64,000 nucleotides of DNA from Gammaproteobacteria bacterium (GCA_011682695.1 JAACED010000005.1:2488-66487); one strand, 5' to 3'. Positions 41,531-57,739 are shown, counted from the first letter of the stretch. The notes: generated by a model from the letters alone, not told the origin. Program-made: numbers and translations.

Positions 41531-41593
41531 GGAGCCAACTAGTGTAGAGCGTGTTCCATCGGATGCCTCTTTGCTAGTGCCGGGTGAACGCGA

Positions 41594-42319: not shown

Positions 42320-42320
42320 G

Positions 42321-44266: not shown

Positions 44267-45254
44267 GACGAGCTCATACGCGAGAGCTGTCGGAGCCGCA
44301 CTCCGATTGCTGCTGACCGAGGACCCCCGTGTGTTCCTCGCCGGGGAAGACATCGGCGTGTACGGCGGGGCCTTTGGCATCACCGACGGACTTGTCCAGG
44401 AGTTTGGAGAGGACAGAGTCCGGGATACGCCGATATCTGAGGAGGCCATCATCGGGCTCGCGGTGGGCGCCGCCATTACGGGACTGAGACCGGTCGTGGA
44501 GATTCAGTTCTTCGATTTCATCGTGAACGCGATGGACCCCCTTGTGAATCAGGCGGCGAAGCTCCACTTCATGTATGGGGGACATGTCGACGTCCCGATG
44601 GTCGTGCGAACAGCCGGAGGTGGGGGTACCGGGGCCGCGGCTCAACACAGCCAAAGCCTCGAGGCTTGGTTTGCGCATGTCCCGGGACTGAAGGTCGTGC
44701 TGCCCGCCACTCCTCAAGACGCGTATGACCTGCTGTTGGCGTCGGTGTTGGATCCCAATCCGGTGGTGTTCGTCGAACACAAGCTGCTGTACAAGACCGA
44801 AGGTCCTTTCGAGTCGAGAGCCCACATTGCCGAGACGCCCGCGCGAATCGGTGAAGCCAAGGTCATCCGTCCCGGCACCGATCTGACGATCGCCGCATAC
44901 TCGATCATGACGGTCAAGGCGTTGGAGGCAGCGGAGAGACTTGCCGACGCCGGCATCGACGCGGAAGTCGTCGACCTGCGAACGGTGCGGCCACTCGACA
45001 TCAAAACCGTCCGTGGGTCGGTGAAGAAGACGGGGAGACTCCTCGTCAGTCACGAGGCGCCGACCGCCGTGGGTGTCGGCGCAGAAGTCGTTGCAGGGGT
45101 GGTCGAATCCGACGCGCTCGACTACCTCCTTGCTCCGGTACGGCGTGTGTGTGGGAAAGACAACCCGATGCCGTATGCCAAGGAACTGGAACGAGCGACG
45201 ATTCCTCAGGTCGATGACATCGAGAAGGCGGCCAAGGAGCTGATGAACGCATGA
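44259..45254 (+). CDS. acoB: 2-oxoacid dehydrogenase E1 beta subunit (transketolase-like)
   Basis: Typical E1beta pyrimidine and C-terminal domains. Confidence 0.85.
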   Translation: MPETSSYARAVGAALRLLLTEDPRVFLAGEDIGVYGGAFGITDGLVQEFGEDRVRDTPISEEAIIGLAVGAAITGLRPVVEIQFFDFIVNAMDPLVNQAAKLHFMYGGHVDVPMVVRTAGGGGTGAAAQHSQSLEAWFAHVPGLKVVLPATPQDAYDLLLASVLDPNPVVFVEHKLLYKTEGPFESRAHIAETPARIGEAKVIRPGTDLTIAAYSIMTVKALEAAERLADAGIDAEVVDLRTVRPLDIKTVRGSVKKTGRLLVSHEAPTAVGVGAEVVAGVVESDALDYLLAPVRRVCGKDNPMPYAKELERATIPQVDDIEKAAKELMNA

Positions 45255-46423
45255 GCGGCGAGAACATCCTCGAGATTCGCCTGCCTGCCATGACCGCAAC
45301 CATGGAACAGGCAACCATCCTTCAGTGGTTGGTCGCCCCCGGTGATCACGTGTCGGAAGGTCGACCGATTGCCGACGTATCGACGGACAAGGTGGATATG
45401 GAGCTGGTGTCTCCGTATGAAGGGACGGTGGTCGAGTTGCTGGTGGAACCCGGCACGGTCGTTCCGCTGGGCGCAACCATTGCCACCATTGCATCCGCGA
45501 CCGGTGATCTGCTCGCCGGATTGGATCTGACCGAGTACGAGCCGTCACCGCCTGCGTCCCCAGAGACTTCTTACGGCATCGTGCCGGCATCGCCACCGGC
45601 GCGACTGCTCGCCCGGCAACTCGGTGTCGATTTGTCCGAGGTCGAGCCCACGGGGGCACGTGGCCAAGTGACCTCGGTCGACGTGAAGGCGTTCGCTCGG
45701 CGAGGTGAGGCCCATCCTGGCGAACGTGCCGACCGTGTCCCTGAGCAAACATCTGCACCATCCCAGAGCTCGCCGATGCCGGTCGATACCGCGAGGGAGC
45801 TCTCGGTGCGCCGGGCCACTGCCGAGATCATGAGCAGGTCCGCGGCAATCCCTCAATTCACGCTGTATCGCACGATCGTTCTCGATCGCACTGCAGCGCG
45901 CAAAGGAGATCACAGTTGGACGACCGAACTCGTGAGGGCACTCGCTGCCGCATTGCGAGAGCATCCCGAGGTGAACAGCCGATGGGATGATCAGCAGCGC
46001 CAACCTGTGCCGTGTGAGGCGGTGCGAGTGGGAGTGGCGATCGACCGGCCGCACGTGGGACTGATCGTTGCTGCGATATCTGATCCTGACACTGTCGATC
46101 CGGACGAGGCCGATCGCATCGTGCGTTCGACCCTCGATCGCGTCCGGGGCGGTTCGCCCAGCCGAGAAGACATGGCGCAGCCTTCGATCACCCTCTCGAA
46201 CCTCGGTGGTCTCGGGATCGACTCGTTCGCCGCTCTGGTCTTCCCACCCCAATCTGCGATCCTGTCGGTGGGGAGCATTCGGATGCGGCCGGTGGCAACG
46301 ACGGACGGTGCGGTGAAAGCAGCGCTCACGTGCGAAGTCGGACTCACGATCGACCATAGGGTCGCCGATGGAGCCGATGGCGCAAGGTTCCTCGCAACGT
46401 TCGCTCGGTATCTCGAGGGTTGA
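45251..46423 (+). CDS. acoC: Dihydrolipoamide acyltransferase E2 (lipoyl domain plus catalytic domain)
   Basis: N-terminal lipoyl domain (DVSTDKVDME) and C-terminal DHRVADGA catalytic motif. Confidence 0.8.
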   Translation: MSGENILEIRLPAMTATMEQATILQWLVAPGDHVSEGRPIADVSTDKVDMELVSPYEGTVVELLVEPGTVVPLGATIATIASATGDLLAGLDLTEYEPSPPASPETSYGIVPASPPARLLARQLGVDLSEVEPTGARGQVTSVDVKAFARRGEAHPGERADRVPEQTSAPSQSSPMPVDTARELSVRRATAEIMSRSAAIPQFTLYRTIVLDRTAARKGDHSWTTELVRALAAALREHPEVNSRWDDQQRQPVPCEAVRVGVAIDRPHVGLIVAAISDPDTVDPDEADRIVRSTLDRVRGGSPSREDMAQPSITLSNLGGLGIDSFAALVFPPQSAILSVGSIRMRPVATTDGAVKAALTCEVGLTIDHRVADGADGARFLATFARYLEG

Positions 46424-46464
46424 TCCTGCCCGCAAACGTGCAGGCCTTCGTGCCGGTCATCCGG

Positions 46465-48177
46465 TCAGGATGGAACGGCTCTCATCAGGATGTCTCTCAC
46501 TTCAGCGGTCGAGGACGCCTGCAGGCAGCGGTCGGCAACTGTCCTGGCGGCATCCGTGGACCATGACCGGATACGGTCTTTCACCACACTGATCGACGGT
46601 GGGTTCATGGACCATTCGTCGAGGCCAAGCCCCAGCAGTATGGGAACCGCCACGGGATCTCCGGCCATTTCTCCACACAGTCCAACCCATTTCCCGTGCG
46701 CGTGGGCAGCTTCGATGACCATCTGGATCAGGCGCAGAACTGCTGGATGGAGGGGGTCGGCGATTGTCGCGACCGCTGCATTGGTTCGATCGACCGCCAA
46801 CGTGTATTGCGTGAGATCATTGGTGCCGATCGAGAAGAAATCGAGCCGGGAGGCAAGTGCACCAGCGATCAGTGCCGCCGAGGGCACTTCGATCATGATC
46901 CCGATTTCGAAGGAAGCAGCCCGTTCTATGCCGCGGCTGTCGAGCGCGGCCGCTGCTGCGCCGACTGCCGCTCGTGCGGCCTCGACTTCGGCCAAGGTGG
47001 CCACCATCGGGAACATGATCTTCAGATTGCCATGGACCCCGGCACGCAGCAGGGCTCGGAGTTGCTTCTGGAAGAGATCGCGTTCCGCCAAGGTCAGGCG
47101 GATTCCCCGCTTGCCGAGAAACGGGTTCAGCTCGTTCTCGAGATTGATGCCGGGCACCTGCTTGTCGCCGCCCACGTCGAGAGTTCTCACTACCACCGGG
47201 CGGTCGCCGAACAGTTCAAGAATCGACCGATAGGCCTCGTACTGCTCATCTTCCGTGGGGAGAGTTCCCCGATCGATGAACAGGAACTCGGTCCGAAGCA
47301 ATCCCACACCCTCGGCTCCCGACCGATCGGCGCGCTCGGCATCTGCGACGCTGCCGATGTTCGCCACCACTTCCTGGCGATGTCCGTCCACGGTGACCGC
47401 CGGCTCTGAGGCGCGTGCGGCAGCAACCGTGAGGAGTCGGGCCTGTCGTTCATACTGCTCACGCAGAGCGGCGAGCTGTTCTGTGTCGGGGTCGATGTAG
47501 AGAAGACCGGCATCACCATCCACCGCGACTGTTGTCCCGGTGGCAACGTCGAGGTTCGTGATTCCGACGATCGCCGGGATTCCCATCGACCGAGCCAGGA
47601 TCGCCGCATGGGAGGTGGCGCTGCCTTCTTTGGTGCAGAAAGCCAACGCCATTCCCTCAGGAAGTGACATCGTATCCGACGGTGTCAGATCGTCGGCGAT
47701 GACGACCGACGGCACGGTGATTTCCGACAATCCTTCGGAACCCAGTCCCATCAGTTCGCGCACGAGTTGTTGTCCGATGTCTCGCACGTCGATTGCTCGC
47801 TCGGCGAAGTAGTCGTCTCCGATGGATGCGAATTCATCAGCAAGTGCGGACGTGACCGCGACCACGGCAGCCTCGGCCGTGGTCGCCTCGGCGGCGATCA
47901 GGTCGGCGGCTTTCGCGGAGAGTGCCGGGTCGGCCAAGAACATTCGATGCACCTCGAATATCTCGGCGGCAGCATCTCCGGCGTGGTCGGCGGCGATCGC
48001 AACGAGCTCACTGAGGCGACGATCGACGGCTGCGATTGCGGCCAGCAGGCGCTCCTGCTCTCCAGGGATGTCATCGACGGGACCCTTGGGAATCTCGGGC
48101 GTCTCGGGTCGATAGACGAACGCTGGTCCGATGGCGATACCGCCGGCCGCCGGGATGCCGTGCATGATGCGGTTCAT
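46465..48177 (-). CDS. ptsI: Phosphoenolpyruvate-protein phosphotransferase (PTS Enzyme I)
   Basis: 570 aa; GGRTSHAAILARSMGIPAIVG-like and PEP-utilising TIM-barrel motifs. Confidence 0.9.
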   Translation of the reverse strand: MNRIMHGIPAAGGIAIGPAFVYRPETPEIPKGPVDDIPGEQERLLAAIAAVDRRLSELVAIAADHAGDAAAEIFEVHRMFLADPALSAKAADLIAAEATTAEAAVVAVTSALADEFASIGDDYFAERAIDVRDIGQQLVRELMGLGSEGLSEITVPSVVIADDLTPSDTMSLPEGMALAFCTKEGSATSHAAILARSMGIPAIVGITNLDVATGTTVAVDGDAGLLYIDPDTEQLAALREQYERQARLLTVAAARASEPAVTVDGHRQEVVANIGSVADAERADRSGAEGVGLLRTEFLFIDRGTLPTEDEQYEAYRSILELFGDRPVVVRTLDVGGDKQVPGINLENELNPFLGKRGIRLTLAERDLFQKQLRALLRAGVHGNLKIMFPMVATLAEVEAARAAVGAAAAALDSRGIERAASFEIGIMIEVPSAALIAGALASRLDFFSIGTNDLTQYTLAVDRTNAAVATIADPLHPAVLRLIQMVIEAAHAHGKWVGLCGEMAGDPVAVPILLGLGLDEWSMNPPSISVVKDRIRSWSTDAARTVADRCLQASSTAEVRDILMRAVPS

Positions 48178-48446
48178 TCTTCGAAGTTACTCTCGACGAG
48201 TCGCTTGAGCGTTGAGATAGCTGCCTCCTCGTCGGGGCCGTCGGCTTGGATACGAACCTCATGGTTCTTCGCTACCGCGATCCTGAATACGGAGATGATG
48301 CTCTTCGCATCAACGGGATCACTCCCACGAGTGAGATTGGTGAGGGTGATCGAGCTGTCGAACCCTTGGGCGGCCTTGACGAATATCGCGGCCGGGCGCG
48401 CGTGTAGCCCAACTTCATGCCTGACGACGACTGTGGTCTCAACCAT
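48174..48446 (-). CDS. ptsH: Phosphocarrier protein HPr
   Basis: 90 aa; GLHARPA (His15 region). Confidence 0.85.
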   Translation of the reverse strand: MVETTVVVRHEVGLHARPAAIFVKAAQGFDSSITLTNLTRGSDPVDAKSIISVFRIAVAKNHEVRIQADGPDEEAAISTLKRLVESNFEE

Positions 48447-49041
48447 CTGTCCAACTCCTGTCGCTCATATGTACGGTGATGGTGGCAAGGAACTCGGCAG
48501 CTTCGAGCCGAGTGACCGCAGTGCCCACATCGTCTCCGACAGCCAGTACACCCATCCCTCGAATCACGGTCACGCCTTCTGGAAGAGGTTCTGTCGCCAC
48601 ACCCAGCCGGATGGAACCTGCAGCTTCACTCATGGATGCCACAACAGGCTCCGGCACACGATGTTGCTCGGCGAGAGCCAGCAGCATGGGCGGCAATCCC
48701 CATGCTGCCGCCTCATGGAAAGCAAGGGCGGCGACGAGCGGATCGGAGTCATCGATGGGAACCGTATCCAACGCTCGATTGTCGATGCAGCCCAGGTCGG
48801 CGCCTACAGCGGTTCGCGTCGCGGACTTGTCGGACCGACGGACGGCGACCGCTCCCAGTGTTGCGGGAGCCAATCCGGCCGCCAGGAGACGTTCGGCGGC
48901 GCGACGAATCTCCGCGACCAGATCACGCTCCGATGGAGCGGCGTAGAGCAAGTCATTGCGGATACGATCGACACGCCGGGGCTGCATTTGAACGGCGCGA
49001 TCGACCGAGCGACGCATGATTCGCCGGAGCAGTCCTTTCAT
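48439..49041 (-). CDS. Hypothetical protein, class II aldolase/adducin-like (degenerate?)
   Basis: Overall resemblance to FucA-fold proteins but metal-binding His residues are not evident. Weak. Confidence 0.35.
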   Translation of the reverse strand: MKGLLRRIMRRSVDRAVQMQPRRVDRIRNDLLYAAPSERDLVAEIRRAAERLLAAGLAPATLGAVAVRRSDKSATRTAVGADLGCIDNRALDTVPIDDSDPLVAALAFHEAAAWGLPPMLLALAEQHRVPEPVVASMSEAAGSIRLGVATEPLPEGVTVIRGMGVLAVGDDVGTAVTRLEAAEFLATITVHMSDRSWTDG

Positions 49042-49046
49042 GGGCT

Positions 49047-50336
49047 TCAGTGCTCGGCCGTTTCGAGATCCTGGAGCCGTCTCAGGTTGACGACGGTGAG
49101 CGACTCGTCGAGTGCGACGTCGTCATAGGCCAGGGTTTGGCCCATCTCCACATCTCGCAAGATCTTCGCTCCGGGTGCCAAACCCAAGGGGAGAAGGCAC
49201 TGTTGGCGTGCAATGTCGGCACGTTCAATCAGTCCGTAGACAGTGAAGCCACCGAGACCGTCGATGATTTCGCCGGCCTTCAGCGGTCTCTTGGCCACGG
49301 TGATGGCTTCCGCCGTTGGATGAGCATCGGTTGCGAGTGTCGTTTCGCCCATGAGTGCGGCTCGGGCGATCCATACAGGTGTCTCCAGGCTCGTCAGATG
49401 ATACGGACGGTAGAGCGCCCAGTAGGGTCCCGGGCCCATCGACAGATACTGAAGATCGCGTATCAGTTTTGGGTGGTCCGTCGTGAACGTCACGAACACA
49501 CCAGGGGCGATTCCTAGACCGAAGTCGACCACCCCTTCATGTGACTCGATTCCTCCGGCATCACGAGGAACGTACGTTTGAGCCAGTGCCTCTTGCGTCA
49601 CATTGGGTCCGTGCATTCCCCGTATGTCAGGTATGAATTGTATGCCGTTTGCCAGCGATGTCATCTCCACCATCGTCTTGGTGCCGTCAACGAAAGAGGC
49701 GAGCATCTTTGGATTCATCTTGCGGGCTCGCGCCATCTCGGCCATGGAATCGGGGTTCGCCGAGCGGTCGAGTGGATTGTTCTTTCCTTTGCCGGCGGCG
49801 ACGACTTTGAATCCAAGACTGGTGGCAAAGTCGTAGAGCTCCATCGTGGCACCTGGCTCATCGCCTCCGGTCAGCGTGTAGACCACGCCGGCGGCCTTGG
49901 CCATCTTGCGAAGGATGTAGCCAACGGTGGCATCCGTCTCGACATTCATCTGCATCACGTGCTTGCGGGCCAGGATCGCGTGATAGGCGACACGGGCTCC
50001 AACATCGGGGATTCCTGTCGCCTCCACGACCACATCCAGTGGCTCGATCGTTGCTGCAAGATGGGCCCTTGTGGTGGCGACACGTTTGCCTGCATACACG
50101 GCATCTGCAGCCTTGTCCGGATCCTCGGTGTCGACGATGTCCGATGCGTCTACACCGGCGGAGAGGAGGACTTCTGTGGCACGCCCCGGCACGACGTCGG
50201 CCACGACCACTACGCGCATTCCGTAGACGGTCTCCATCTGGCTTACCAAGCCCTCACCCATCTGGCCGGCGCCTGCGAGACCAATGCGCACGATCTCCCC
50301 GCGTTCCTCGCGCGATTTCAGTAGCGGTAACAGCAT
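49047..50336 (-). CDS. NAD(P)-binding oxidoreductase with C-terminal SAF domain (COG4091-like)
   Basis: Start ATG overlaps the srlB stop (TGATG). Rossmann GLAGAGQMG. Occupies the position where srlD would be expected. Confidence 0.6.
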   Translation of the reverse strand: MLLPLLKSREERGEIVRIGLAGAGQMGEGLVSQMETVYGMRVVVVADVVPGRATEVLLSAGVDASDIVDTEDPDKAADAVYAGKRVATTRAHLAATIEPLDVVVEATGIPDVGARVAYHAILARKHVMQMNVETDATVGYILRKMAKAAGVVYTLTGGDEPGATMELYDFATSLGFKVVAAGKGKNNPLDRSANPDSMAEMARARKMNPKMLASFVDGTKTMVEMTSLANGIQFIPDIRGMHGPNVTQEALAQTYVPRDAGGIESHEGVVDFGLGIAPGVFVTFTTDHPKLIRDLQYLSMGPGPYWALYRPYHLTSLETPVWIARAALMGETTLATDAHPTAEAITVAKRPLKAGEIIDGLGGFTVYGLIERADIARQQCLLPLGLAPGAKILRDVEMGQTLAYDDVALDESLTVVNLRRLQDLETAEH

Positions 50337-50710
50337 CAATGCTCTCCTTTGAGAATCCGCACGACAGTGCCAGGCGTGACGTTCGGTGCCGGAACTTCGG
50401 GGACGCTCACGTCTCCGGGAAGTTCGGGTTCGGTGCACCCGTTGAACTTTACGATGAGGTGTCCGAGATTGGCCAGGTTCTCGTTTGCGACGTCTCCCAC
50501 ACAGAGCACCGGGTACGGTTCTGTGCCTATCTCGAGGATGTCGCCGGCCTCGACTGGGGAATGCAATTTGTCATGATCAATGAGAATGGCGAACTCGTGG
50601 AGTTCCTCGGGGGCTTCTTCGCCGAAGAACACGAGGATGCCTTCTGCAGCGAACGCCTCGGCCATTTCCCCTACGCTGATCACGGTTGTTTCATACTTGA
50701 CGGTGGTCAT
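50336..50710 (-). CDS. srlB: PTS glucitol/sorbitol-specific EIIA component
   Basis: ~124 aa starting MTTVKYETTVISVGE. Size and composition fit the SrlB/GutB family. Confidence 0.7.
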   Translation of the reverse strand: MTTVKYETTVISVGEMAEAFAAEGILVFFGEEAPEELHEFAILIDHDKLHSPVEAGDILEIGTEPYPVLCVGDVANENLANLGHLIVKFNGCTEPELPGDVSVPEVPAPNVTPGTVVRILKGEH

Positions 50711-50802
50711 GGCATTAGTCACCCCACCCGGCCGCCGGCCGGGCCCATCGAGCGTGGGATGGGATCCGGCGGTCAACCGGATCCCATCGCGTCGGACCTT
50801 GC

Positions 50803-51351
50803 TCAGTCCTCGATCAAGGAGATGTTGTCGACATCAACCCCGGAGACGAAGTTCTCCTCGGTGATGAATCGCGCCAACGGACCCGAGGGACTCGCCCCGT
50901 GCACGTCGACGGTCAGCACACCCTTCATGGGGTACACACCGATGCGAGCCGTGCCACCACAATCGATGACGGCGACTGCAATCTCGCTGAAGCCGGCTTT
51001 CGACTTGAAACCGTCGAATGGCCTCCCACCGGTGAGGTCTGCGATGCGCTGAGCGACCGGGTGGATGCCTCCTCCGGTCACGGAGTAGATCAGGTCCCTT
51101 CCTGGTTCCGGCTGGATGACCAGTCCTGTGCCCCACCCTTTCATGCCGCGTCCGACGCGCACCTTCCGATACCCTCCCTCAGGAGGCGAAGGCTGCGCAG
51201 GCTCGGCAGGGACCTCGACGGTCTCGGCGGCAGCCTCGTCTGGAGCGGACTCTGCGGTCGTGGCCGTCTTTTCGGCCTCCGGCCGAGTCGCATCCTCCGT
51301 TGCTTCAGCAGCTTCTTTGGGGGACTTCTTGTGCCGTTTCAGAAAACCCAT
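50803..51351 (-). CDS. srlE: PTS glucitol/sorbitol EIIB domain protein (SrlE N-terminal-domain-like) with Ala/Glu/Pro-rich N-terminal extension
   Basis: IAVAVIDCGGTARIGVYP...GASPSGPLARFITEENFVSGV matches the E. coli SrlE EIIB region (IGVAVIDCGGTLRCGIYP...GKSGPLAQYIVEDIYVSGV). Confidence 0.7.
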   Translation of the reverse strand: MGFLKRHKKSPKEAAEATEDATRPEAEKTATTAESAPDEAAAETVEVPAEPAQPSPPEGGYRKVRVGRGMKGWGTGLVIQPEPGRDLIYSVTGGGIHPVAQRIADLTGGRPFDGFKSKAGFSEIAVAVIDCGGTARIGVYPMKGVLTVDVHGASPSGPLARFITEENFVSGVDVDNISLIED

Positions 51352-51375
51352 TCGAACAACGCCTCCTCTTGTCGA

Positions 51376-51912
51376 TCAGGCGTACATACCGATGCTGGCT
51401 GCCCACCCGATCACCACGGCTATTGGACCCGTGATCATCCGGGAGAACAGCACTGCTGGTACCCCGATCTCTACAGTCTCTGGTTCTGCTTCTCCAAGCG
51501 CGAGACCTACTGGAATGAAGTCGCACCCAACCTGGGGGTTGATGGCCCACAAGGCCGTCAATGCCATGGCCGGCGAGATATTCCCTCGGCCGATCTCAAC
51601 ACCGATAAGTGTACCGATGATCTGCGCGATGACTGCTCCGGGACCCAACAGTGGTGAGAGCAACGGAAACCCGATGATCACCGAAAGGATGAGGAGTCCA
51701 ATGACATTGCTGGCCAAGCCTTTCAGACCGTTGGCCAACCAGTCGCCGACGCCTGTTGCAAGGATGATGCCGATGACAAAAGCGATGAATGCCATGAACG
51801 GAATCACGGTCTTCAACACAATGTCTACAGCGTCGCGGCCTGCCTGAAACAGGGCTCCGACCACCAGGCCGGTTCCCTTACCGAGTCGAGTCAAGAAATC
51901 TTGCATGTTCAA
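51376..51912 (-). CDS. PTS glucitol/sorbitol EIIC2 membrane domain protein (SrlE C-terminal-domain-like)
   Basis: 178-aa multi-TM protein between srlA and the EIIB gene. Confidence 0.6.
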
Positions 51913-51922
51913 TCCTCCTCGA

Positions 51923-52468
51923 TCAGGCGGCTGGGATCAGACCGCTGCGCTTCCACAGGAATGCAGTGATCCGCTCGGTAACGATTCCCCGGATTTGGAT
52001 GACCACGAGTCCGGTGAGCAAGTAGCGGACGGCCAAGTCCGTGACGCTCAATCCGAGAGCTTCGATGCCGGTCGCAATGCCGAGCCAAACGAAGAGCTCA
52101 CCCGGGTTGATGTGCGGGAAAATCCCCAGTGGGGGATGCACATACGACACCGCAGCGTCATAGAACGCCGGCTTGTACTTCTCCGGGAGGAACTGGCCAT
52201 TGGTGTACGCCATCGGATTCGTCAGGAAGAACACCGAAAGCACGGGCCAGACTACGTACCTGATGGGGTAGTAGATAATCCCTTCGCGAGCTGCCCATTC
52301 ACCAAACTTGTTCACGCGTTCCGGCCCAATCAGCGCGATCAGCGCGTTTACGCCGGTAAGCAGCACGATGAGCAGCGGAACGATTCCGACCAGCAGACCG
52401 GAGAAGACATCGGCACCTTGCTTGAAGACACCGATGAAAGCTTCAGCCCAACTTGCTAGTAATTCCAT
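51923..52468 (-). CDS. srlA: PTS glucitol/sorbitol EIIC component
   Basis: [16 protein letters not shown] and YKPAFYDAA match SrlA ([25 protein letters not shown]). Confidence 0.8.
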
Positions 52469-52547
52469 TGTCTCTCCTCTCAGACTGACAGCGTCTGTTT
52501 ACTTTCGGTCCGCTGTAGTAACCGGTCTCACTTGCGCGTTATGTCAT

Positions 52548-52988
52548 TCAGTCATCCTCCTCAGATCCGTCCACCCTCGATTCAATTGACGAGGAACGTT
52601 TGTCTCTCGCGTTCTTGAGAAAGCCTGCCGCCTGTTCGAATGCCGCCCAGGTCTTGTCGCTTACTCCGGCCGGGGGTGTCCCGAGGCCAAGATTGTCGAG
52701 CTGCCAGCCGACGACGCTAGGAACAGGCTGAAGGCCGGCGAAGATGGTGAACCCGGATAGGCGCTCTGCAGCGACGACTACGTCGGATTGGTCGATGACC
52801 GCGACGACATAGGTCTTGCGCTTCCAGTTCGAACCGGCCATGCCGATGGACATTGTGCTTCCCAGGCGGCGAAGATCCTGGGCACGTCCATGGAATCGAT
52901 GCATTTGCCATGTGGAGAGACCGAGTTGGATGAGCCAGGCAACCACGAGAAGGATGAGCAGCATGATCGTTTTGGACTCGAACATCAC
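52548..52988 (-). CDS. gutM: Glucitol operon activator GutM-like
   Basis: N-terminal TM (VVAWLIQLGLSTWQ), KRKTYVVAVIDQ...FAGLQPVP resembles GutM. Confidence 0.65.
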   Translation of the reverse strand: MMFESKTIMLLILLVVAWLIQLGLSTWQMHRFHGRAQDLRRLGSTMSIGMAGSNWKRKTYVVAVIDQSDVVVAAERLSGFTIFAGLQPVPSVVGWQLDNLGLGTPPAGVSDKTWAAFEQAAGFLKNARDKRSSSIESRVDGSEEDD

Positions 52989-53962
52989 GCCACCTCACTG
53001 ATAGATGTATTTGTATCGATATGGAGGATCGCCTCGGCGGCGGTGGAATCGGTGACGAGGGCATCCAGATACCCGCCTCTGAGCACGGAGAGGATCGCAG
53101 TGGCCTTGCCCTTTCCCGCTGCGACCGCCATGACGAAAGGTATCGAGGTGAGGTCTTCCAGCGGCATGGCCACGATTCTTCGGTTCTGGGGCAGATCTGC
53201 AGGGCGTCCCCGGTCGTCGAACAAGAAACCCAAAAGATCTCCCACGACGCCACGTTCTTGGAGCTCGGTAATTGTTGCCCGGTCGAAGTATCCGGCGCGG
53301 ACGATGCCCGGAATCTGGCCGACAGATCCGATACCTGTGATGGCCACGTCACTCTCTCGGGCAAGGTCCAACGTGTGCCTGATTGCCTGCTGGGATAGGA
53401 GCGATTGGGCAGTCTCCTCCCGGTCCACGAGAAGAGGAGTCGCCAGGAAGTGATAGTCGCCATTCAGTTTCTCGGCAAGCAGCCTGACGATGCCGGAACC
53501 GTCGATGGAAGGGTCTCCTTCGCCGATGGAGCCCATCATCTGCACGGCCGAGACTCCCCGAAGCTGTATCTCTGGCATCGCTCTCACGACATGGAAAAGG
53601 GAAGCTCCCCATCCGACGGAAATACGCATGTCGGAGTGGAGATGACTTTGGAGAGACCGTGCAGCGAGGCGACCTACCCGAGCTAGAAGTGTTTCATACG
53701 CAAGGCCACGATTGTCGAGCACTCGAGCTTCCGTCAACCCGTAACGTTCCACGAGCTGCTGTTCCAAGTCTGGACGTGAGCGCAGCGGGAACTTGACCCG
53801 GATTTGCACCAATCCGGCTTCGCGAGCCTCACGCAGCAGACGCGAGACCATCGACCGTGATTTTCCGATGCGGAGTGCTATCTCGCGCTGGTCGAGATTC
53901 TCCTCGTAATACCAGACGACGATCTGGCCCAACAACTCGAGCCGTTCCTCGCTCGCAGGCAT
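52985..53962 (-). CDS. SorC-family transcriptional regulator of the glucitol PTS cluster
   Basis: HTH (QREIALRIGKSRSMVSRLL) plus SorC sugar-binding domain. Confidence 0.8.
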   Translation of the reverse strand: MPASEERLELLGQIVVWYYEENLDQREIALRIGKSRSMVSRLLREAREAGLVQIRVKFPLRSRPDLEQQLVERYGLTEARVLDNRGLAYETLLARVGRLAARSLQSHLHSDMRISVGWGASLFHVVRAMPEIQLRGVSAVQMMGSIGEGDPSIDGSGIVRLLAEKLNGDYHFLATPLLVDREETAQSLLSQQAIRHTLDLARESDVAITGIGSVGQIPGIVRAGYFDRATITELQERGVVGDLLGFLFDDRGRPADLPQNRRIVAMPLEDLTSIPFVMAVAAGKGKATAILSVLRGGYLDALVTDSTAAEAILHIDTNTSISEVA

Positions 53963-54050
53963 GAATACCCTCCCAGATACCCGCAGTCAACGTGAGTATT
54001 TTCAGTTGCAGGGACTGTATGCCGGTACTCACGGACGCGTCAATGAGTGT

Positions 54051-54084
54051 GTGCACATATGTGCATCCTCGGTGCACTTATGTT
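54051..54084. promoter_or_regulatory. Operator candidate in the divergent gut promoter region: 14-bp perfect palindrome TGCACATATGTGCA plus downstream half-site repeat GTGCACTTATG
   Basis: Read directly. AT-rich. Lies in the 271-nt intergenic region between the SorC regulator (-) and the serine hydrolase (+). Confidence 0.5.
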
Positions 54085-54232
54085 CTCTGTCACTGTCAGC
54101 AGCACAGTATCGATTTCGGTGGCGGGCCTCCAAGTTCGAAAGAGGCAAGGTGGTGTTGTTCCAAGGGCGGTTGGCATGGTGGAGGCGCCGGGTGATCCTG
54201 CCCCGTCGGATTCCACTCCTCACTAGGCTCGG

Positions 54233-55432
54233 ATGAATCGACACGGGAGAATCCTGATGGTCCACGGCCACTGTGACCGAGCGTTCGATACGGTTCGTGA
54301 GGCATTCGCCGCCAATTTCGCGGAGCGCGCGGAGACCGGAGCGGCGCTCAGCGTCTACGCAGACGGACGCAAGGTCGTGGATCTGTGGGGTGGGGATGCC
54401 GGCCCCGGACGACCGTGGGAGCAGGACACCATCACCCCGGTGTGGTCGGCGACCAAAGGGATCACGGCGCTGGTCGTGCAGCGTCTCGTCGATACCGGGC
54501 GACTCGGACTCGACACACCCGTGGCGCACTGGTGGCCGGAGTTCGCCCAAGGCGGCAAGGAGAAGATCACGGTCGCCGATGTGCTCACCCACGGCGCCCG
54601 TCTGCCCTATCCGCCGGGCTACGCCGAGATCGTCACGGCTGACGGGCCCGAGGGGTGGGACCGTGTCGAGGACCTCACTCGGCTACTCGAGCAGGCCGAG
54701 CCCATCTGGCCGGAGGGTACCCATGGCTACCACTCCGTGACCTTCGGGCTCCTTCTCAACGGTGTCGTGCGCCGGGCGACCGGCAGCAGCATCGGAGCGT
54801 TGCTCCGCGACGAGATCGCCGGGCCGCTCGGGATCGAGGCCGCCTGGATCGGACAGCCCGCAGAGGTCGAGGACAGGGTGGCACATCTCGAACTCACCAT
54901 CCCTCCGCCGCCCACCGATGATCCCGAGATCCTGGCGTTCATGGCCCACGCCATGAGCTCGGAGGGATCCATCGGCCGTTCGCTCTTCGTCGGACCGTCG
55001 GGGGCGATGAACTTCACCGCGGTAGGGAACGATCCCCGGTTCCGGGCCGTGGAGCACCCTGCGGCCAACGGTGTCGTCGATGCACGATCCCTGGCCCGGG
55101 TGTACGCCGCACTCGCGGGCGGCGGGGAACTCGACGGTGTTCGCGTAGTGTCCGAGGAGTCCATCGCCCGGCACAGTGCCGAGCAATGGCACGGCAACGA
55201 TGCCACGCTGATGGCCGAGAAGCGATACGCCCTCGGCTACATGCTGCCAGGTACCCCCACCGAGCGATACGGCCCTGCCGACAAGGCATTCGGGCACCCG
55301 GGGATGGGGGGTTCGCTCGGTTTCGCCGACCCCGGGATCGGATTCGGATATGTCACCCGGCACATGGTGTTCGAGATCACAGTGGACCCGCGTGTCGACG
55401 CGGTGGCCGACGCCGTGTATGCGAGCCTCTGA
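54233..55432 (+). CDS. Serine hydrolase, beta-lactamase/esterase family (class C-like)
   Basis: SATKG (S-x-x-K) nucleophile motif. 399 aa. Confidence 0.8.
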   Translation: MNRHGRILMVHGHCDRAFDTVREAFAANFAERAETGAALSVYADGRKVVDLWGGDAGPGRPWEQDTITPVWSATKGITALVVQRLVDTGRLGLDTPVAHWWPEFAQGGKEKITVADVLTHGARLPYPPGYAEIVTADGPEGWDRVEDLTRLLEQAEPIWPEGTHGYHSVTFGLLLNGVVRRATGSSIGALLRDEIAGPLGIEAAWIGQPAEVEDRVAHLELTIPPPPTDDPEILAFMAHAMSSEGSIGRSLFVGPSGAMNFTAVGNDPRFRAVEHPAANGVVDARSLARVYAALAGGGELDGVRVVSEESIARHSAEQWHGNDATLMAEKRYALGYMLPGTPTERYGPADKAFGHPGMGGSLGFADPGIGFGYVTRHMVFEITVDPRVDAVADAVYASL

Positions 55433-55536
55433 GGTGTGACCTTCGGCCTGGCGCCGCCTCGCGCCGTTGGCCGACGGAGGGCTTCGTTCGGGATCCGGGT
55501 GTTGGGACGGTGTGCCGCCGGGGCGAGTGACGGCGC

Positions 55537-56808
55537 TCAGGGCGGTGTGCCGCTGGTCGTGTAGGTGTGGCCGAGCTTGGTGGTCCATCGGTGGTCGCCG
55601 CCGGGGAGGGGCTGGTGGGTCCATCCGGCGTCGTGTCGGATGCGGTGGTCGTGGCGGCAGAGGGGTGCGAGGTTCGTGACGGTGGTGGGACCGCCGTCGC
55701 CATACGGTGTGCCATGGTCGAGGTCGCAGCTTGCCGCGGGCATGCGGCATCCGGGGAAGACACAGGTCGGGTTGCGGGTCTCGACGTGTCTGCGCTGGCC
55801 TGTGGTGGGTCGCCGCCGCGTGGTGCCGTGGTAGGCCGGTTGTCCGGTATCGGGGTCGGTGACGGTGAAGCGCCATTGGCCGGTTTGGTTTTGTTCGGTG
55901 ACCTGTCGGGCGATGTCGGCGATGACGGGTCCGTAGCCGGCCAACTCGCCGGGATGATCGCTGAGAGTCGCCAGAGTTTCGAGGTCGACGCGGATCTCGA
56001 CGACACCTCTGGTCTTGGTGGCGTGGGTGGGCGTGCCGTCGAGCAGGTCCAGGAAGACGTCGGCGCGTAGTTGATCCATGGTGCGGGATTCGTCGGCCGT
56101 CTTGAGGCTGCGGGCGAGGTGGTCGATCTTCGCGGCCGCGGCGGTGACCCGATCCGGGGCGAGATCGAGGCCGAGGAGGTGGGCGGTTCCCGACTCGGTC
56201 GGTTCTGCGATGAGGCGCCGTTCACCGACCGCCCGTTGATACCGTTGTCGGGCATCGTCGGGGTCGACATCGATGCAGAGCCTACGGATCCGTGCTGCGA
56301 GCTGTCCGGATGTAAGGCGAGGCGCATCCCCCAACACGCGGTCGGTGACATCACGGGCAAGAGCGATCGGCAGATGTTCCGTCCCGTAGCTGATGGTCTT
56401 GGCGCGGCGCAGGTCGATGTCTCCGGCGGCCAACTCATCCCAGACTCGGGGGAGACGCCGTCTCAGGACGAAAGCGAAGGCAAGTTCCGAGTCGGCAGCC
56501 CGTCGGGTCAGCCGCAGCGCGACCCGAATCTCGGCCGCCGCGGACTCCACCGCCAATGCGTCGTCGGACTCGCCTGTCGCGTCGGCGACAGCAGCCATAT
56601 CCTCATAGATTCGGGCCTGGTAATGCGACGCCATGCGTTGATGAGCCCGCAGTACCACGATGCGGTCATACCCGGACAGCTCCCCGACATCGATCGTCGT
56701 CAGGAACGCAGCCAACACGGGACCCGGCTCCAACTCATCGAGCCGGTCGGGGATCACTGCAGCCTCGCTATCGAACATATGTTCGATCATACAGGGTCCC
56801 ACCGACAA
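55537..56808 (-). CDS. DUF222 plus HNH endonuclease domain protein (REP13E12-like)
   Basis: C-terminal CDLDHGTPYGDGGPTTVTNLAPLCRHDHRIRH HNH motif preceded by a DUF222-type region. Such genes are common in Actinobacteria. Confidence 0.8.
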   Translation of the reverse strand: MSVGPCMIEHMFDSEAAVIPDRLDELEPGPVLAAFLTTIDVGELSGYDRIVVLRAHQRMASHYQARIYEDMAAVADATGESDDALAVESAAAEIRVALRLTRRAADSELAFAFVLRRRLPRVWDELAAGDIDLRRAKTISYGTEHLPIALARDVTDRVLGDAPRLTSGQLAARIRRLCIDVDPDDARQRYQRAVGERRLIAEPTESGTAHLLGLDLAPDRVTAAAAKIDHLARSLKTADESRTMDQLRADVFLDLLDGTPTHATKTRGVVEIRVDLETLATLSDHPGELAGYGPVIADIARQVTEQNQTGQWRFTVTDPDTGQPAYHGTTRRRPTTGQRRHVETRNPTCVFPGCRMPAASCDLDHGTPYGDGGPTTVTNLAPLCRHDHRIRHDAGWTHQPLPGGDHRWTTKLGHTYTTSGTPP

Positions 56809-57160
56809 GAACCACCCTCCAAGAACGACATATGTGCCGATCCGTTTTCGTGTGACGATTCGGCGTGTTCTGGCTCCTGGACTCGTGATCGAATGTGGGG
56901 AGTTGTAGAGCTTCTGAGGCTCTCAGGCCACAGATCGCCACGTCGATCGATCCGTCGTCCAGGAAATCGAGAGGCTCGGTGAAGTCATGCACCCGCAGCT
57001 CCACACGATCGGCATAGCTATCTCGTGCCAGCCGGATCATCTCCGTACTGGCATCGAAGCCGATGATCCGTTCGGCATCCTGCTCCAAGAGTCAATCGAA
57101 GTAGGCACCGGGACTGCAGCCGATGTCGAGCACGACCTTCCCCTTCACCGGAGGGAGCAG
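56768..57160 (-). pseudogene. Degraded class I SAM-dependent methyltransferase
   Basis: Motif I VVLDIGCSPGAYFD is followed by an in-frame TGA and then ...IIGFDAS...DVAICGL. No intact start upstream. Coordinates are approximate. Confidence 0.4.
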
Positions 57161-57303
57161 GGCTCAGCACAACGGACGCCAGGCTGTAGCGGAGGACTGC
57201 AAACGTGATCGACTGCAACGCTTCTTCGTCCAGGCCCCGACGGATCAGCACCCACGAGCTCCACAGGAACGTAACGGCAAGGGCGATTCCGATAGCGCCG
57301 AGA

Positions 57304-57739
57304 TGTGACGGCCAAACCCGGGACGCCGTTGCGACACTCCAACTTCGCCAAGCGAATCTGGCGGCCGGCCGTCGAAGCGGCGGGCGTCCCACCAGGGCTG
57401 CGCATCCACGACTTGAGACATACCGCTGTCGCGTTGATGATCGCAGCAGGCGCTCATCCTGAGCACATCAAACGTCACCTCGGGCACAGCTCGATCACCG
57501 TCACCATGGACCTGTACGGTCACCTGTTCCCGTCAGAGGCGGACACCATCGCGGAGCGTCTCGATCAGATGCTGCGCGAGTCTCAGACGGACAAACGACG
57601 GACAAAACCGCTCGAACTGACGTCGTGGAGCGGCCATGAACCCCCTGGTCAGGCCCCTGACCAGGACGTATTCGGGTGGGCCCGGCAGGACTCGAACCTG
57701 CGACTAACGGATTATGAGTCCGCTGCTCTGACCAACTGA
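57304..57739 (+). pseudogene. Tyrosine recombinase (phage integrase) C-terminal fragment whose 3' end overlaps the tRNA
   Basis: HDLRHT...HSSITVTMDLYGHL (catalytic His/Arg/Tyr box) only. The N-terminal two-thirds are absent. Confidence 0.6.

Follow-up and report, generated by a model that had tools for sequence, protein, structure and literature searches.

A glucitol/sorbitol-type uptake system is tied, in the 64,000-nt stretch of DNA analysed here (the window), to a DXR-II-type oxidoreductase (DRL) and to a complex resembling pyruvate or acetoin dehydrogenase, a combination that suggests a so far undescribed catabolism of 2-C-methyl-D-erythritol (ME), a plant and bacterial polyol. In our reading the cluster is an inducible module, complete in itself, for the breakdown of a small branched polyol, most probably ME. 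The chances are about even, in our judgement, that ME is taken up as ME 4-phosphate (MEP), that DRL works in reverse to give DXP, and that E1/E2 converts DXP to acetyl-CoA and glyceraldehyde 3-phosphate (GAP). We found no published account of such a route from ME through MEP and DXP to acetyl-CoA and GAP in the literature.

Ten genes were confirmed on the minus strand between positions 46465 and 53962, and profile matches bear out the order that an earlier note on this DNA had given them. A SorC/DeoR-type sugar-phosphate-binding regulator opens the operon (52985-53962; PF04198, 8.2e-68), followed by a GutM-like activator (52548-52988; PF06923, 6.6e-18), the Gut-family EIIC1 protein SrlA (51923-52468; PF03608, 1.1e-70), the membrane C-terminal half of SrlE (EIIC2, 176-178 aa; 51376-51906; PF07663, 4.9e-46; NF049924 positions 156-330), its N-terminal EIIB half (182 aa; 50803-51351; PF03612, 1.3e-46; NF049924 positions 1-121) and the Gut-family EIIA protein SrlB (50336-50710, the start being read from the sequence; PF03829, 3e-31). 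Next come the NAD(P)-dependent DXR-II/DRL-type oxidoreductase with its SAF domain (429 aa; 49047-50336; DRL_cat, PF21135, 2.5e-63), an accessory protein of class II aldolase fold (200 aa; 48439-49041; a weak match to Aldolase_II, PF00596, over the C-terminal 55 residues only), HPr (48174-48446; PF00381, 4.9e-28; TIGR01003) and Enzyme I (EI; 46465-48177; TIGR01417, 568 bits). The SorC stop and GutM start overlap by 4 nt, and from srlB to EI most junctions overlap or almost abut: the DRL ATG and the srlB TGA have one base in common, HPr overlaps the stop of the aldolase-like gene by 8 nt, and EI that of HPr by 4 nt. As had been noticed before, the operon contains no SDR-type SrlD; the DRL gene holds the place of SrlD in canonical gut operons. 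The presence of PTS genes, which had seemed surprising in a high-GC, Actinobacteria-like genome, is accounted for by the cluster's own HPr and EI.

The genes of the span first assigned to this cluster (48174-53962) stand, but its limits were too narrow, since the conserved unit that holds the PTS-DRL genes also takes in EI and a plus-strand block at 41594-46423. The partners overlooked in that block are an IspD-family cytidylyltransferase, a cluster-associated paralogue (41594-42319; PF01128, 1.9e-42; TIGR00453 164.6 bits, under the cut-off of 181.3); a second SorC-type regulator, encoded by the first gene of the E1/E2 operon (42345-43289; PF04198, 2.8e-50), syntenic in loci L001-L004, L099 and L100; the E1 alpha subunit of pyruvate/acetoin dehydrogenase type (43286-44266; PF00676, 4e-86; TIGR03182 352.7 bits, under the cut-off of 393.85), many homologues of which JGI names acetoin:DCPIP oxidoreductase alpha; the ThDP-dependent E1 beta subunit (44259-45254; PF02779, PF02780; NF006667 357.9 bits, above the cut-off of 321); and an E2 dihydrolipoyl acyltransferase with lipoyl, E3-binding and catalytic domains (45251-46423; PF00364, PF02817, PF00198). 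The E2 gene is convergent with that of EI and conserved with the cluster. Divergent from the IspD gene lies a degenerate IspD-like gene for a possible accessory protein (167 aa; minus strand, 41000-41500), 87% identical to a gene of L001 and conserved in L003 and L007; its L004 counterpart matches PF01128 weakly. HAD phosphatases accompany the IspD paralogue in some lineages.

The association of these genes was counted over 85 non-duplicate DRL loci, 49 with a Gut PTS and 36 without. E1 is present in 34 and E2 in 31 of the former, against one (E1) and two (E2) of the latter, all on truncated contigs; reciprocally, each of the four E1 alpha homologues looked up has DRL and a split Gut PTS as neighbours. 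Across phyla E1 alpha and beta share 52-58% identity, DRL merely 40-51%, and E1 beta is 55-58% identical to the cluster-linked E1 beta of Chloroflexus, S. meliloti, Terrarubrum and Priestia. The uptake step undergoes non-orthologous replacement around a constant DRL-E1-E2 core: Terrarubrum has a Gut PTS, a Priestia plasmid an MFS transporter, FGGY kinase and E3, and S. meliloti pRM41A, whose DRL is 72% identical to that of Brucella, an ABC transporter, sugar kinase, E3 and LipA.

The reading of SrlE as split, with its halves reversed, is confirmed. The C-half gene precedes the EIIB-half gene, and each encodes a separate protein with its own AGGAGG-type ribosome-binding site (GAGGAGG upstream of the C-half ATG). 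The EIIB half carries VIDCGGTARIGVYP, and VIDCGGTAR is invariant in it. Of 46 related loci that could be scored, 20 show this order too, and they come from Acidimicrobiia, Chloroflexota, Spirochaetes and Dormibacterota; a frameshift or assembly artefact was rejected because the same order was called independently in many assemblies. An intact fused srlE, named earlier as evidence against the split reading, does occur, but in other taxa (Bacillota, Rubrobacter, Pseudonocardiaceae, Alphaproteobacteria), where it serves the same DRL-linked cluster, so that the split is a lineage variant and no defect. The EIIB half begins with an extension of about 60 aa, made up of an MGFLKRHKK motif and, after it, a linker rich in Ala, Glu, Pro and Thr; extensions built in this way are present in Acidimicrobiia and in Spirochaete/marine loci but missing from Chloroflexota.

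By its sequence, the 429-aa oxidoreductase belongs with the DXR-II/DRL enzymes, a clade of alternative DXP reductoisomerases, and is no generic COG4091 protein. It matches the Brucella DRL (PDB 3UPL/3UPY) with an E value of 4e-96 and about 39% identity, and a neighbour-joining tree, the phylogenetic check proposed earlier, places it within the DXR-II signature clade alongside that enzyme. Every named substrate-binding and dimer residue is kept, G113, E166, F170, K183, K185, T221, H242, R310 and Y312 corresponding to Brucella G121, E174, F178, K191, K193, T229, H250, R320 and Y322. K191, K193 and T229 are fosmidomycin/substrate anchors and E174, F178, R320 and Y322 dimer residues, and together with G121 and H250 they tell DXR-II from the inactive DLO1 and DLO2 clades (PMC3847144). 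Clade membership and kept residues suggest MEP/DXP chemistry and not a replacement sorbitol-6-phosphate dehydrogenase, one of the two readings offered earlier. The Rossmann and SAF domains and the translational coupling to srlB were rightly recognized; the COG4091-like label was not, and we agree with the suggestion that the PTS substrate may be other than glucitol.

We propose the following scheme. Phosphate would pass from PEP through EI, HPr and SrlB to the cysteine of VIDCGG in the free-standing EIIB, and the membrane pair of SrlA and the SrlE C-half would import ME and release it as MEP. The DXR-II enzyme would run in reverse, from MEP to DXP; as the DXR equilibrium favours MEP, this reaction would have to be pulled by the E1/E2 step. 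Reversibility of DXR has been described (PMC13001223). E1 alpha/beta, with ThDP, would cut DXP between C2 and C3, so that GAP leaves and the hydroxyethyl group passes by the E2 lipoyl arm to CoA, yielding acetyl-CoA, with E3 provided in trans. Control of the two convergent operons would lie with GutM and the two SorC-type regulators. Like acetoin, DXP is a methyl ketone with an alpha-hydroxy group. The sorbitol PTS of Salmonella delivers ME as MEP. Transport of ME by that system has been reported (Testa 2004). Single point mutations allow pyruvate dehydrogenase E1 to make DXP (PMC3424233), and the E1 fold can therefore handle hydroxyethyl-ThDP/GAP chemistry. ME, ME-glucosides and exported MEcDP occur in nature (PMC11192765).

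The IspD paralogue, the HAD phosphatases and the aldolase-fold protein are not needed in a purely catabolic scheme. The last had been called aldolase-like, and the fold is indeed that of class II aldolases: in Foldseek its AF2 model matches T. thermophilus FucA with a TM score of 0.62, and a C-terminal helix-strand motif matches PF00596. A search for the three Zn-binding histidines, however, found neither an HxH nor a third His in this protein, and nothing in it aligns with FucA Glu73. The protein carries a conserved basic N-terminal segment (RLMRRSVDRAxKMQPRR), and its gene directly follows DRL in Acidimicrobiia/Caldilineae/Anaerolineae-type loci only. With its metal ligands missing and its distribution lineage-restricted, it is probably no aldolase; like the adducin head domain, it probably has no catalytic activity.

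The same logic, a ketose phosphate made by DRL and cleaved by a ThDP enzyme, might serve another substrate, which we consider rather unlikely: another 1-deoxy or 6-deoxy alditol, 1-deoxy-D-xylulose, or apiitol, a hydroxymethyl analogue that, once phosphorylated, would give xylulose 5-phosphate by a DXR-type rearrangement. DXR-II-signature enzymes lie beside a split transketolase, PfkB kinase and ABC transporter (L074, L075, L080, L081), beside SIS, Zn-ADH, FGGY kinase and RpiR genes (L040, L043, L048, L083, L086), and beside fsa and tkt (L096) or phosphoketolase (L097), so that the family evidently serves several sugar pathways. Some DRL-PTS loci have other C-C cleaving enzymes in place of E1/E2, namely fsa with tkt in L. 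salivarius and an adjoining phosphoketolase in E. raffinosus; as these enzymes normally use 1-hydroxy ketoses such as xylulose 5-phosphate, at least some family members may use a different polyol phosphate. Listeria and marine/Spirochaete loci, which likewise count against the ME reading, have PTS and DRL with no E1/E2 nearby. Signature proteins also occur in unrelated settings, for instance beside ileS in Tissierellia, and a more distant DRL homologue (41% identity) lies in a Deinococcus polysaccharide cluster. Against another substrate here, an acetyl-transferring E1/E2 of pyruvate/acetoin type suits the methyl ketone DXP and no 1-hydroxy ketose, the Brucella substrate-binding residues are all unchanged, and clade members from several phyla turn DXP into MEP in complementation tests (PMC3847144). 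With 1-deoxy-xylulose, no DRL step would be needed between PTS and E1/E2, whereas no other gene is as tightly linked to srlB as that of DRL.

That the cluster instead serves isoprenoid biosynthesis or salvage, with the PTS recovering ME as MEP, DRL as housekeeping DXR, IspD acting onward and E1 being DXS-like, seems to us improbable. Brucella and other bacteria do depend on DXR-II for MEP synthesis (PMC3847144), the E1 mutants mentioned above make DXP, an IspD paralogue is present in 15 of the 49 PTS-DRL loci, and in L007, L101 and L102 the housekeeping ispD-ispF pair and cysS adjoin the inserted cluster, the pair coexisting with the paralogue in L101 and L102. However, the constant presence of E2, together with E3 and lipoyl synthase (S. 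meliloti) or E3 (Priestia), indicates an oxidative, acyl-CoA-forming complex and no synthase, and SorC/GutM regulators and dedicated uptake with interchangeable transporter and kinase are catabolic hallmarks. PTS-DRL loci are also found in Enterococcus and Ligilactobacillus, which use the mevalonate pathway. Chloroflexus aurantiacus, reported to have the mevalonate and not the MEP pathway, nevertheless possesses a DXR-II able to complement E. coli dxr (PMC3847144); its DRL ABY34555.1, presumably the tested protein YP_001634944.1, lies within the same operon (SorC-E1a-E1b-E2-GutM-SrlA-SrlEc-SrlEn-SrlB-DRL-EI).

An ordinary glucitol/sorbitol or pentitol PTS, with DRL as a non-orthologous SrlD and E1/E2 as an unrelated pyruvate dehydrogenase, is very improbable: every PTS component is best matched by Gut-family models, SrlA clears its NCBIfam equivalog cut-off (NF049923, 224.6 against 150 bits) and DRL occupies the SrlD position, but the SrlE halves and SrlB score far under theirs, E1/E2 follow PTS-linked DRL (34/49 against 1-2/36 loci; reciprocally 4/4) and stay when other uptake systems replace the PTS, and in its signature residues DRL agrees with the DXP/MEP enzyme.

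Among known systems, class II aldolases (FucA, AraD, MtnB) resemble the 200-aa protein in predicted fold (TM about 0.6 to T. thermophilus and E. coli FucA) but differ in having the three Zn-binding histidines and Glu73. The Lsr system (LsrK, LsrR, LsrG, LsrF) likewise has a SorC-family regulator, LsrR being the second-best NCBIfam match, and takes a phosphorylated 1-deoxy C5 compound to acetyl-CoA and triose phosphate; its proteins for uptake, its isomerase and its thiolase are wholly unlike those considered here, with no LsrK, LsrG or LsrF homologue in the cluster, and the likeness is one of outcome only. The E. coli/Salmonella srlAEBD-gutM-srlR operon (Gut family, TC 4.A.4) has the same SrlA, SrlE-domain and SrlB families, GutM, and a dehydrogenase gene directly after srlB; here, in contrast, SrlE is two proteins in reversed order, a DXR-II enzyme replaces the SDR SrlD, the regulator is SorC-type and not SrlR, HPr and EI lie within the operon, and E1/E2 and an IspD paralogue are linked to it. 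AcoA/AcoB/AcoC/AcoL and heterotetrameric pyruvate dehydrogenases share E1 alpha, E1 beta and the three-domain E2, and acetoin dehydrogenase converts a methyl alpha-hydroxy-ketone to acetyl-CoA and an aldehyde, as proposed here; unlike them, the present system would act on a phosphorylated C5 ketose, has no E3 gene within the window and an E1 alpha under the pyruvate dehydrogenase equivalog cut-off, and is linked to PTS and DRL, with no acetoin genes. Finally, the Brucella abortus DRL (3UPL, 3UPY; Sangari 2010; Carretero-Paulet 2013) has the same fold (Rossmann, PF21135, SAF) and belongs to the same clade, with Val in place of the Thr found here at position 351, but was described as a biosynthetic DXR replacement, whereas the gene of the present enzyme forms part of a PTS/catabolic operon, and the reaction proposed for it is the reverse one. 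If true, the ME pathway could explain why bacteria without the isoprenoid pathway that DXR-II is supposed to serve nonetheless possess this enzyme.

The operon of the glucitol/sorbitol-type (Gut) phosphotransferase system (PTS) is made of ten genes on the minus strand, at 46465-53962 of the window. It starts with a SorC-type regulator (52985-53962) and GutM (52548-52988), followed by SrlA (EIIC1; 51923-52468), which matches PF03608 (1.1e-70) and NF049923 (224.6 bits, above the 150-bit cut-off). Then come the two halves of SrlE, first SrlEc, a 176-aa membrane protein (51376-51906) covering positions 156-330 of the NCBIfam SrlE model (Pfam EIIBC-GUT_C, PF07663), and then SrlEn, a 182-aa protein (50803-51351) covering positions 1-121 (EIIBC-GUT_N, PF03612). 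SrlB (EIIA-Gut; 50336-50710; PF03829, 3e-31) scores 107, below the NCBIfam SrlB cut-off of 189.55. The remaining genes code for a 429-aa oxidoreductase, DRL (49047-50336; PF21135 plus SAF), for AldL, a 200-aa protein of class II aldolase fold (48439-49041), for HPr (48174-48446), and for Enzyme I (EI; 46465-48177). Overlaps of 4 nt are found at the SorC/GutM and HPr/EI junctions, the srlB stop and the DRL start have one base in common (TGATG), the gap between DRL and the AldL gene is 5 nt, the latter overlaps HPr by 8 nt, and an AGGAGG-type ribosome-binding site lies in front of each SrlE half. No SDR-type SrlD is present in the operon, DRL occupying its position. Gene calls and domain matches thus show that the gene observation of the earlier note, a split SrlE in permuted order with an oxidoreductase and an aldolase-like protein and no SrlD, was right in every particular. 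No promoter or terminator exceeding shuffled expectation was found in a scan of 41-54.5 kb, and no riboswitch in an Rfam scan of 38-58.5 kb, where the sole match was a tRNA-Met.

The oxidoreductase matches PF21135 ("Oxidoreductase DRL, catalytic domain") with 213.4 bits against a 27-bit cut-off, and the SAF domain with 23.5 bits against a cut-off of 21; its sole strong PDB matches are 3UPL/3UPY, the DXR-like enzyme of Brucella abortus, over the full length (E 4e-96). [quoted passage not shown] 2013, PMC3847144). In the numbering of Brucella DRL, K191, K193 and T229 anchor fosmidomycin/substrate, E174, F178, R320 and Y322 form the dimer interface, and G121, H250 and V351 are clade signatures (PMC3847144). 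Nine of these ten positions are the same in the window protein (G113, E166, F170, K183, K185, T221, H242, R310 and Y312), and V351 is replaced by Thr. When 100 near-full-length representatives from an exhaustive HMMER search were compared, the K-K-T-H-R signature persisted down to about 40% identity with the window DRL, and DLO-like and more distant groups carried N-K-(L/M/I) or K/R-T-(S/A), as described for DLO1/DLO2. A phylogeny of the oxidoreductase had been proposed earlier as a check; in a neighbor-joining tree of 108 sequences it groups with Brucella DRL within the signature clade. By sequence, then, the window oxidoreductase is assigned to the DXR-II (DRL) enzymes, and a fosmidomycin-sensitive DXP-to-MEP reductoisomerase activity is predicted for it. 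The characterised reaction, DXP + NADPH -> MEP, is reversible, and a 2026 review still finds no defining pattern in the distribution of Dxr-II (PMC13001223).

The conserved cluster extends beyond the PTS operon to which the earlier note had confined it. A plus-strand block converges on EI, with an IspD-family protein (41594-42319; PF01128, 1.9e-42), a second SorC (42345-43289), the dehydrogenase-complex subunits E1alpha (43286-44266; PF00676) and E1beta (44259-45254; PF02779 and PF02780, above the NF006667 cut-off), and an E2 with lipoyl, E3-binding and catalytic domains (45251-46423). The equivalog cut-offs for pyruvate dehydrogenase (PDH) are not reached by E1alpha (352.7, cut-off 393.85) or by E2 (188.8, cut-off 445), and no E3 gene was found within the 64-kb window, although the S. 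meliloti and Priestia versions of the cluster encode one. All 15 genes of the block keep their order in relatives with 92%, 70% and 69% identical DRL, where the outer flanks differ, and nucleotide similarity to the closest relative (locus L001) is confined to 38993-54184.

DRL-bearing loci of other genomes were gathered from the neighbourhoods of close DRL homologues, from a search of GTDB, with each species represented by one genome and an alignment of 38 DRL family members as query, and from annotated records, and fifteen window proteins were mapped to all six-frame ORFs of these loci by phmmer. A Gut-type PTS adjoins DRL in 49 of 85 non-duplicate loci. Within 10 kb of DRL, these 49 PTS-linked loci carry E1 in 34 cases, E2 in 31 and IspD in 15; the corresponding numbers for the 36 loci without PTS are 1, 2 and 0, the E1/E2 exceptions being contigs that end next to DRL. 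Many of the PTS loci without E1/E2 are short contigs. In the reciprocal test, four E1alpha homologues (68-72% identity) were chosen solely by the length of their contigs, and all four adjoin DRL and a split Gut PTS. E1alpha and E1beta of the window are 52-58% identical to those of the Chloroflexus, S. meliloti, Terrarubrum and Priestia clusters, where DRL is merely 40-51% identical; since the E1 subunits are more alike across clusters than DRL, E1 represents an orthologous set that travels with DRL.

In these clusters, the uptake functions change around a constant core. A Priestia aryabhattai plasmid combines an MFS transporter and an FGGY kinase with pdhA-E1beta-E2-lpdA, two SorC and DRL; S. 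meliloti Rm41 pRM41A, whose DRL shares 72% identity with the Brucella enzyme of known crystal structure, carries an ABC transporter and a sugar kinase with SorC-DRL-E1alpha-E1beta-E2-lpdA-lipA; and Terrarubrum has a Gut PTS with EI next to DRL-E1alpha-E1beta-E2. A TARA contig, which starts just upstream of DRL with a short srlB-like ORF fragment, encodes DRL, an AldL-like protein, E2 and an E1alpha-beta fusion, all in the same orientation. Uptake modules can replace one another and the DRL-E1-E2 core stays, a classical pattern of non-orthologous displacement within one pathway. In an Anaerosalibacter locus (L058), two DRL copies (4014-5330 and 9968-11272) flank one Gut PTS, followed by SorC-E1alpha-E1beta-E2. 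Among cultured bacteria, carriers include Chloroflexus aurantiacus J-10-fl, Ktedonosporobacter rubrisoli, Planomicrobium/Planococcus, Salibacterium, Marinococcus, S. meliloti Rm41, Priestia aryabhattai XT37 and Listeria monocytogenes (lmo0542-0547).

We consider it probable that the module is catabolic, with a DXR-II-type enzyme supplying a dedicated complex of the PDH/acetoin type. The best-supported mechanism, to which we give an even chance, is a PTS-dependent pathway leading from 2-C-methyl-D-erythritol (ME) through MEP and DXP to acetyl-CoA and GAP. An external unphosphorylated compound would be taken up and phosphorylated, and DRL would then act on it in reverse, converting MEP to DXP (CH3-CO-CHOH-CHOH-CH2OP). 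The acetoin/PDH-type E1 would attack DXP at C2, freeing glyceraldehyde 3-phosphate, and the hydroxyethyl group would be handed via lipoyl-E2 to CoA. Uptake, DRL and E1/E2 would thus make up the whole pathway in three steps; no other catabolic enzymes are encoded in the clusters. The sorbitol PTS of Salmonella is reportedly a known entry route for ME, which it is said to deliver as MEP. Many E1alpha homologues are annotated by JGI as acetoin:DCPIP oxidoreductase alpha, and one point mutation suffices for a PDH E1 to make DXP (PMC3424233). In nature, ME, ME-glucosides and exported MEcDP come from plants and stressed bacteria (PMC11192765). Literature searches on ME catabolism, on DXR-II with PTS, and on deoxyxylulose with acetoin dehydrogenase yielded nothing relevant, and the downstream chemistry that we predict seems not to have been described so far. 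The earlier interpretation, a non-orthologous dehydrogenase or a substrate other than glucitol, is partly supported and substantially sharpened, in that the non-glucitol reading is kept and the dehydrogenase is now placed in DXR-II.

Some PTS-DRL loci are devoid of E1/E2, as in Listeria and in marine/Spirochaete loci; the PTS-DRL locus of L. salivarius carries fsa and tkt, and that of E. raffinosus has a neighbouring phosphoketolase. Elsewhere, DRLs of the signature clade adjoin a split transketolase with PfkB and ABC genes, or SIS, Zn-ADH, FGGY and RpiR genes. The variety of DRL partners means that the family serves more than one pathway, and some members may act on a 1-hydroxy analogue, such as an apiitol-type phosphate yielding xylulose 5-P. 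These loci lend some weight to another branched or deoxy polyol as the substrate, which we nevertheless hold to be rather unlikely. A more distant DRL homologue is found in a Deinococcus polysaccharide cluster.

Three further DRL contexts were observed. A Zn-alcohol-dehydrogenase-like gene precedes DRL in loci of Clostridia and of a Pirellulales MAG (L040, L043, L048, L083 and L086), with Pfam confirmation for L048 only; an FGGY-like kinase follows DRL directly, or in L083 after one ORF, and the four Clostridia/Bacillota loci, but not L086, also show a SIS-like ORF on the upstream side and an RpiR-like regulator on the downstream side. This context points to a pathway in which a kinase phosphorylates a related sugar or polyol. 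In Anaerolineae and Aerophobetes (L074, L075, L080 and L081), DRL is preceded by an ORF of about 340-380 aa, weakly E1beta-like, which in L080 is by Pfam a transketolase pyrimidine-binding plus C-terminal subunit; other ORFs of L080 encode a PfkB kinase, a TIM barrel resembling xylose isomerase and, probably, an ABC transporter. These loci may represent a variant that uses a transketolase on a hydroxymethyl analogue. In seven loci of Tissierellia/Clostridia type (L049, L061, L064, L065, L071, L078 and L084), with gene identities taken from N-terminal sequence only, DRL comes after an HI0933-like flavoprotein gene and before an ileS-like large ORF, one ORF intervening in L049 and L064; six of the seven have an NCS2-like permease upstream, and none has visible sugar genes. 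The "orphan" DXR-II of Finegoldia type may belong here, and the catabolic model does not explain this context.

The presence of DXR-II in mevalonate users bears on a second alternative, an isoprenoid salvage or biosynthesis module. Chloroflexus aurantiacus J-10-fl was reported as mevalonate-only, with a DXR-II able to complement a dxr mutant of E. coli, and Finegoldia magna has a functional DXR-II without other MEP or MVA genes (PMC3847144). The C. aurantiacus protein ABY34555.1 shares a 90% cluster with the DRL of a Chloroflexus sp. locus (L036), and the identical sequence lies in an eleven-gene, same-strand operon with the order SorC-E1alpha-E1beta-E2-GutM-SrlA-SrlEc-SrlEn-SrlB-DRL-EI. ABY34555.1 bears the signature residues except for H250, replaced by Tyr, and four DXR-II members have been described without H250 (PMC3847144). 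It is very likely the tested protein, YP_001634944.1. PTS-DRL loci are also present in Enterococcus raffinosus and Ligilactobacillus salivarius, both from mevalonate-pathway genera. A catabolic role can explain the Chloroflexus, Enterococcus and Ligilactobacillus carriers and a biosynthetic role cannot; furthermore, the E3 and lipoyl synthase genes found in clusters exclude a merely DXS-like synthase role of E1, so that we regard an isoprenoid module as improbable. An ordinary sorbitol PTS with a non-orthologous dehydrogenase is very improbable, a stand-in for sorbitol-6-P dehydrogenase being eliminated as the main reading by the DXR-II clade signature and the E1/E2 linkage. AI-2 (phospho-DPD) processing was rejected as the identity of the system, no Lsr enzymes being present, and is kept as an analogy. 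Extending ME catabolism to the whole family is more tentative: DXR-II could be primarily catabolic, an MEP dehydrogenase/isomerase feeding a "DXP dehydrogenase" that yields acetyl-CoA and GAP, with Brucella-type biosynthesis as a secondary recruitment, a view that we hold to be somewhat doubtful.

The two SrlE halves of the window, encoded in the order C-half then N-half, score 275.5 and 148.5 bits, both below the 400-bit equivalog cut-off. Of the 49 PTS-linked loci, 46 allowed the state of SrlE to be scored. It is split, with the C-half first, in 20 (Acidimicrobiia, Spirochaetes, Dormibacterota and, within Chloroflexota, Ktedonobacteria, Anaerolineae, Caldilineae and Chloroflexus), and fused in the canonical order in 26 (Bacillota, Rubrobacter and Pseudonocardiaceae); annotated records add fused forms from Listeria, Terrarubrum, Ligilactobacillus and Enterococcus. 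The split arrangement of SrlE is a variant that has been conserved. Conservation of the EIIB domain is very high, and the Cys of VIDCGGTAR is invariant in 21 split EIIB proteins. The Ala/Glu/Pro-rich N-terminal extension of EIIB pointed out earlier keeps its architecture, the motif M-(A/G)-(L/F)-(F/L/W)-(D/K)-(R/N/K)-(F/V/H/M)-K-K followed by 40-60 low-complexity residues, in Acidimicrobiia and the Spirochaete/marine group, and is missing from the Chloroflexota proteins (123-128 aa). The extension resembles an inter-domain linker of the PTS that has been kept, with a putative docking or membrane-associating peptide at its end.

AldL lies directly after DRL only in loci of Acidimicrobiia, Caldilineae and Anaerolineae type. 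In its AF2 model, pLDDT averages 66 and reaches 83-91 over the C-terminal half, and the top Foldseek matches are T. thermophilus FucA 2FLF/2FK5 (TM 0.62, probability 1.00); profile comparison with FucA by hhalign was not significant, so that the family is supported by fold search only. The aldolase-like description holds for the class II aldolase/adducin (PF00596) fold and not for the Zn-binding His triad: in an alignment of nine AldL family members to E. coli FucA, approximate in register, none has the Zn-ligand His residues (H92, H94 and H155), and catalytic E73 falls in a gap. The N-terminus is conserved and basic. A catalytic role on DXP, as a class II aldolase, an epimerase or an MtnB-like dehydratase, was rejected because metal ligands are absent and the protein is lineage-restricted, and AldL is regarded as a putative non-catalytic accessory protein.

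The IspD of the window has the nucleotide-binding motif LAGGSGSR...NKVYL (GxGxR...K type) and scores 164.6 with TIGR00453, below the equivalog cut-off of 181.3. Two loci, L101 and L102, have the cluster as an insert with carD on one side and the housekeeping ispD-ispF-cysS on the other, and the IspD of the cluster is a second copy; there, HAD phosphatase-IspD paralogue-HAD (S6PP-like) phosphatase-EI (13536-17405 and 13651-17520, respectively) converge on a PTS-DRL-E1-E2-HPr operon. HAD phosphatases recur in L003 and L099. IspD is encoded by the first gene of the PTS operon in Ktedonobacteria and by the last, after E2, in Pseudonocardiaceae. A branch from imported MEP to isoprenoids, or relief of MEP overload, would be a plausible role. 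Divergent from IspD, at 41000-41500 on the minus strand, a 167-aa gene product resembles the central part of IspD (VAATEAIKRV...VDRS..L..V.GPE) without its N-terminal nucleotide-binding loop; the gene is kept beside the cluster IspD in L001, L003, L004 (weak PF01128 match) and L007. It is followed at 39276-41000 (minus strand), as in L001/L002, by a gene for a 574-aa calcineurin-like phosphoesterase, a putative member of the module that could hydrolyse phosphorylated ME derivatives.

GC content is 0.58-0.61 at 48000-54000 and 0.62-0.67 elsewhere in the window, and GC3 is 0.66-0.72 in the PTS genes and 0.75-0.80 in neighbouring genes, which is consistent with horizontal acquisition of the cluster. 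Beyond 54184, where synteny with L001 ends, lie genes for a protein of the beta-lactamase family (54233-55432), for a DUF222/HNH endonuclease (55537-56808) and for a C-terminal tyrosine recombinase fragment (57305-57739), the last overlapping tRNA-Met (57675-57750). The region 54184-57750 looks like an insertion hot spot or island edge. Proteins identical to those of the window are deposited under the MAG "Gammaproteobacteria bacterium", relatives with 86-93% identity are labelled Actinobacteria, and the related GTDB loci are Acidimicrobiia; the label Gammaproteobacteria seems to result from an error in binning or taxonomy.

If true, catabolism of ME as proposed would be the first pathway of its kind, would add a new substrate class for PDH/acetoin-type complexes, and would account for functional DXR-II in bacteria without the MEP pathway. 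A catabolic role in a conserved transporter-DRL-E1/E2 module would be a concrete, testable explanation for the patchy distribution of DXR-II. For enzymology, the model predicts a PDH/acetoin-type complex working on a sugar phosphate and a DXR running backwards; for carbon turnover, it concerns ME, its glucosides and exported MEcDP, which are made in large amounts and for which we found no published degradation route. Fosmidomycin acts on both DXR types, and a catabolic DXR-II could alter the bacterial response to this drug. For PTS evolution, the cluster is a clean natural case of EIIBC domain fission with gene-order permutation, where, in some lineages, the freed EIIB has kept a tail that resembles a linker and bears a conserved motif at its N-terminus.

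Compared with known systems, SrlE of the Gut family (TC 4.A.4) is one polypeptide of about 320-330 aa, PF03612 then PF07663, whereas the window encodes two proteins. DXP and acetoin are alike in being methyl alpha-hydroxy-ketones. A polyol PTS operon is a known kind of system, and the downstream chemistry appears to be the new part. The sorbitol operon follows the logic of a polyol PTS and then a polyol-phosphate dehydrogenase, and in the window DRL takes exactly the place of SrlD.
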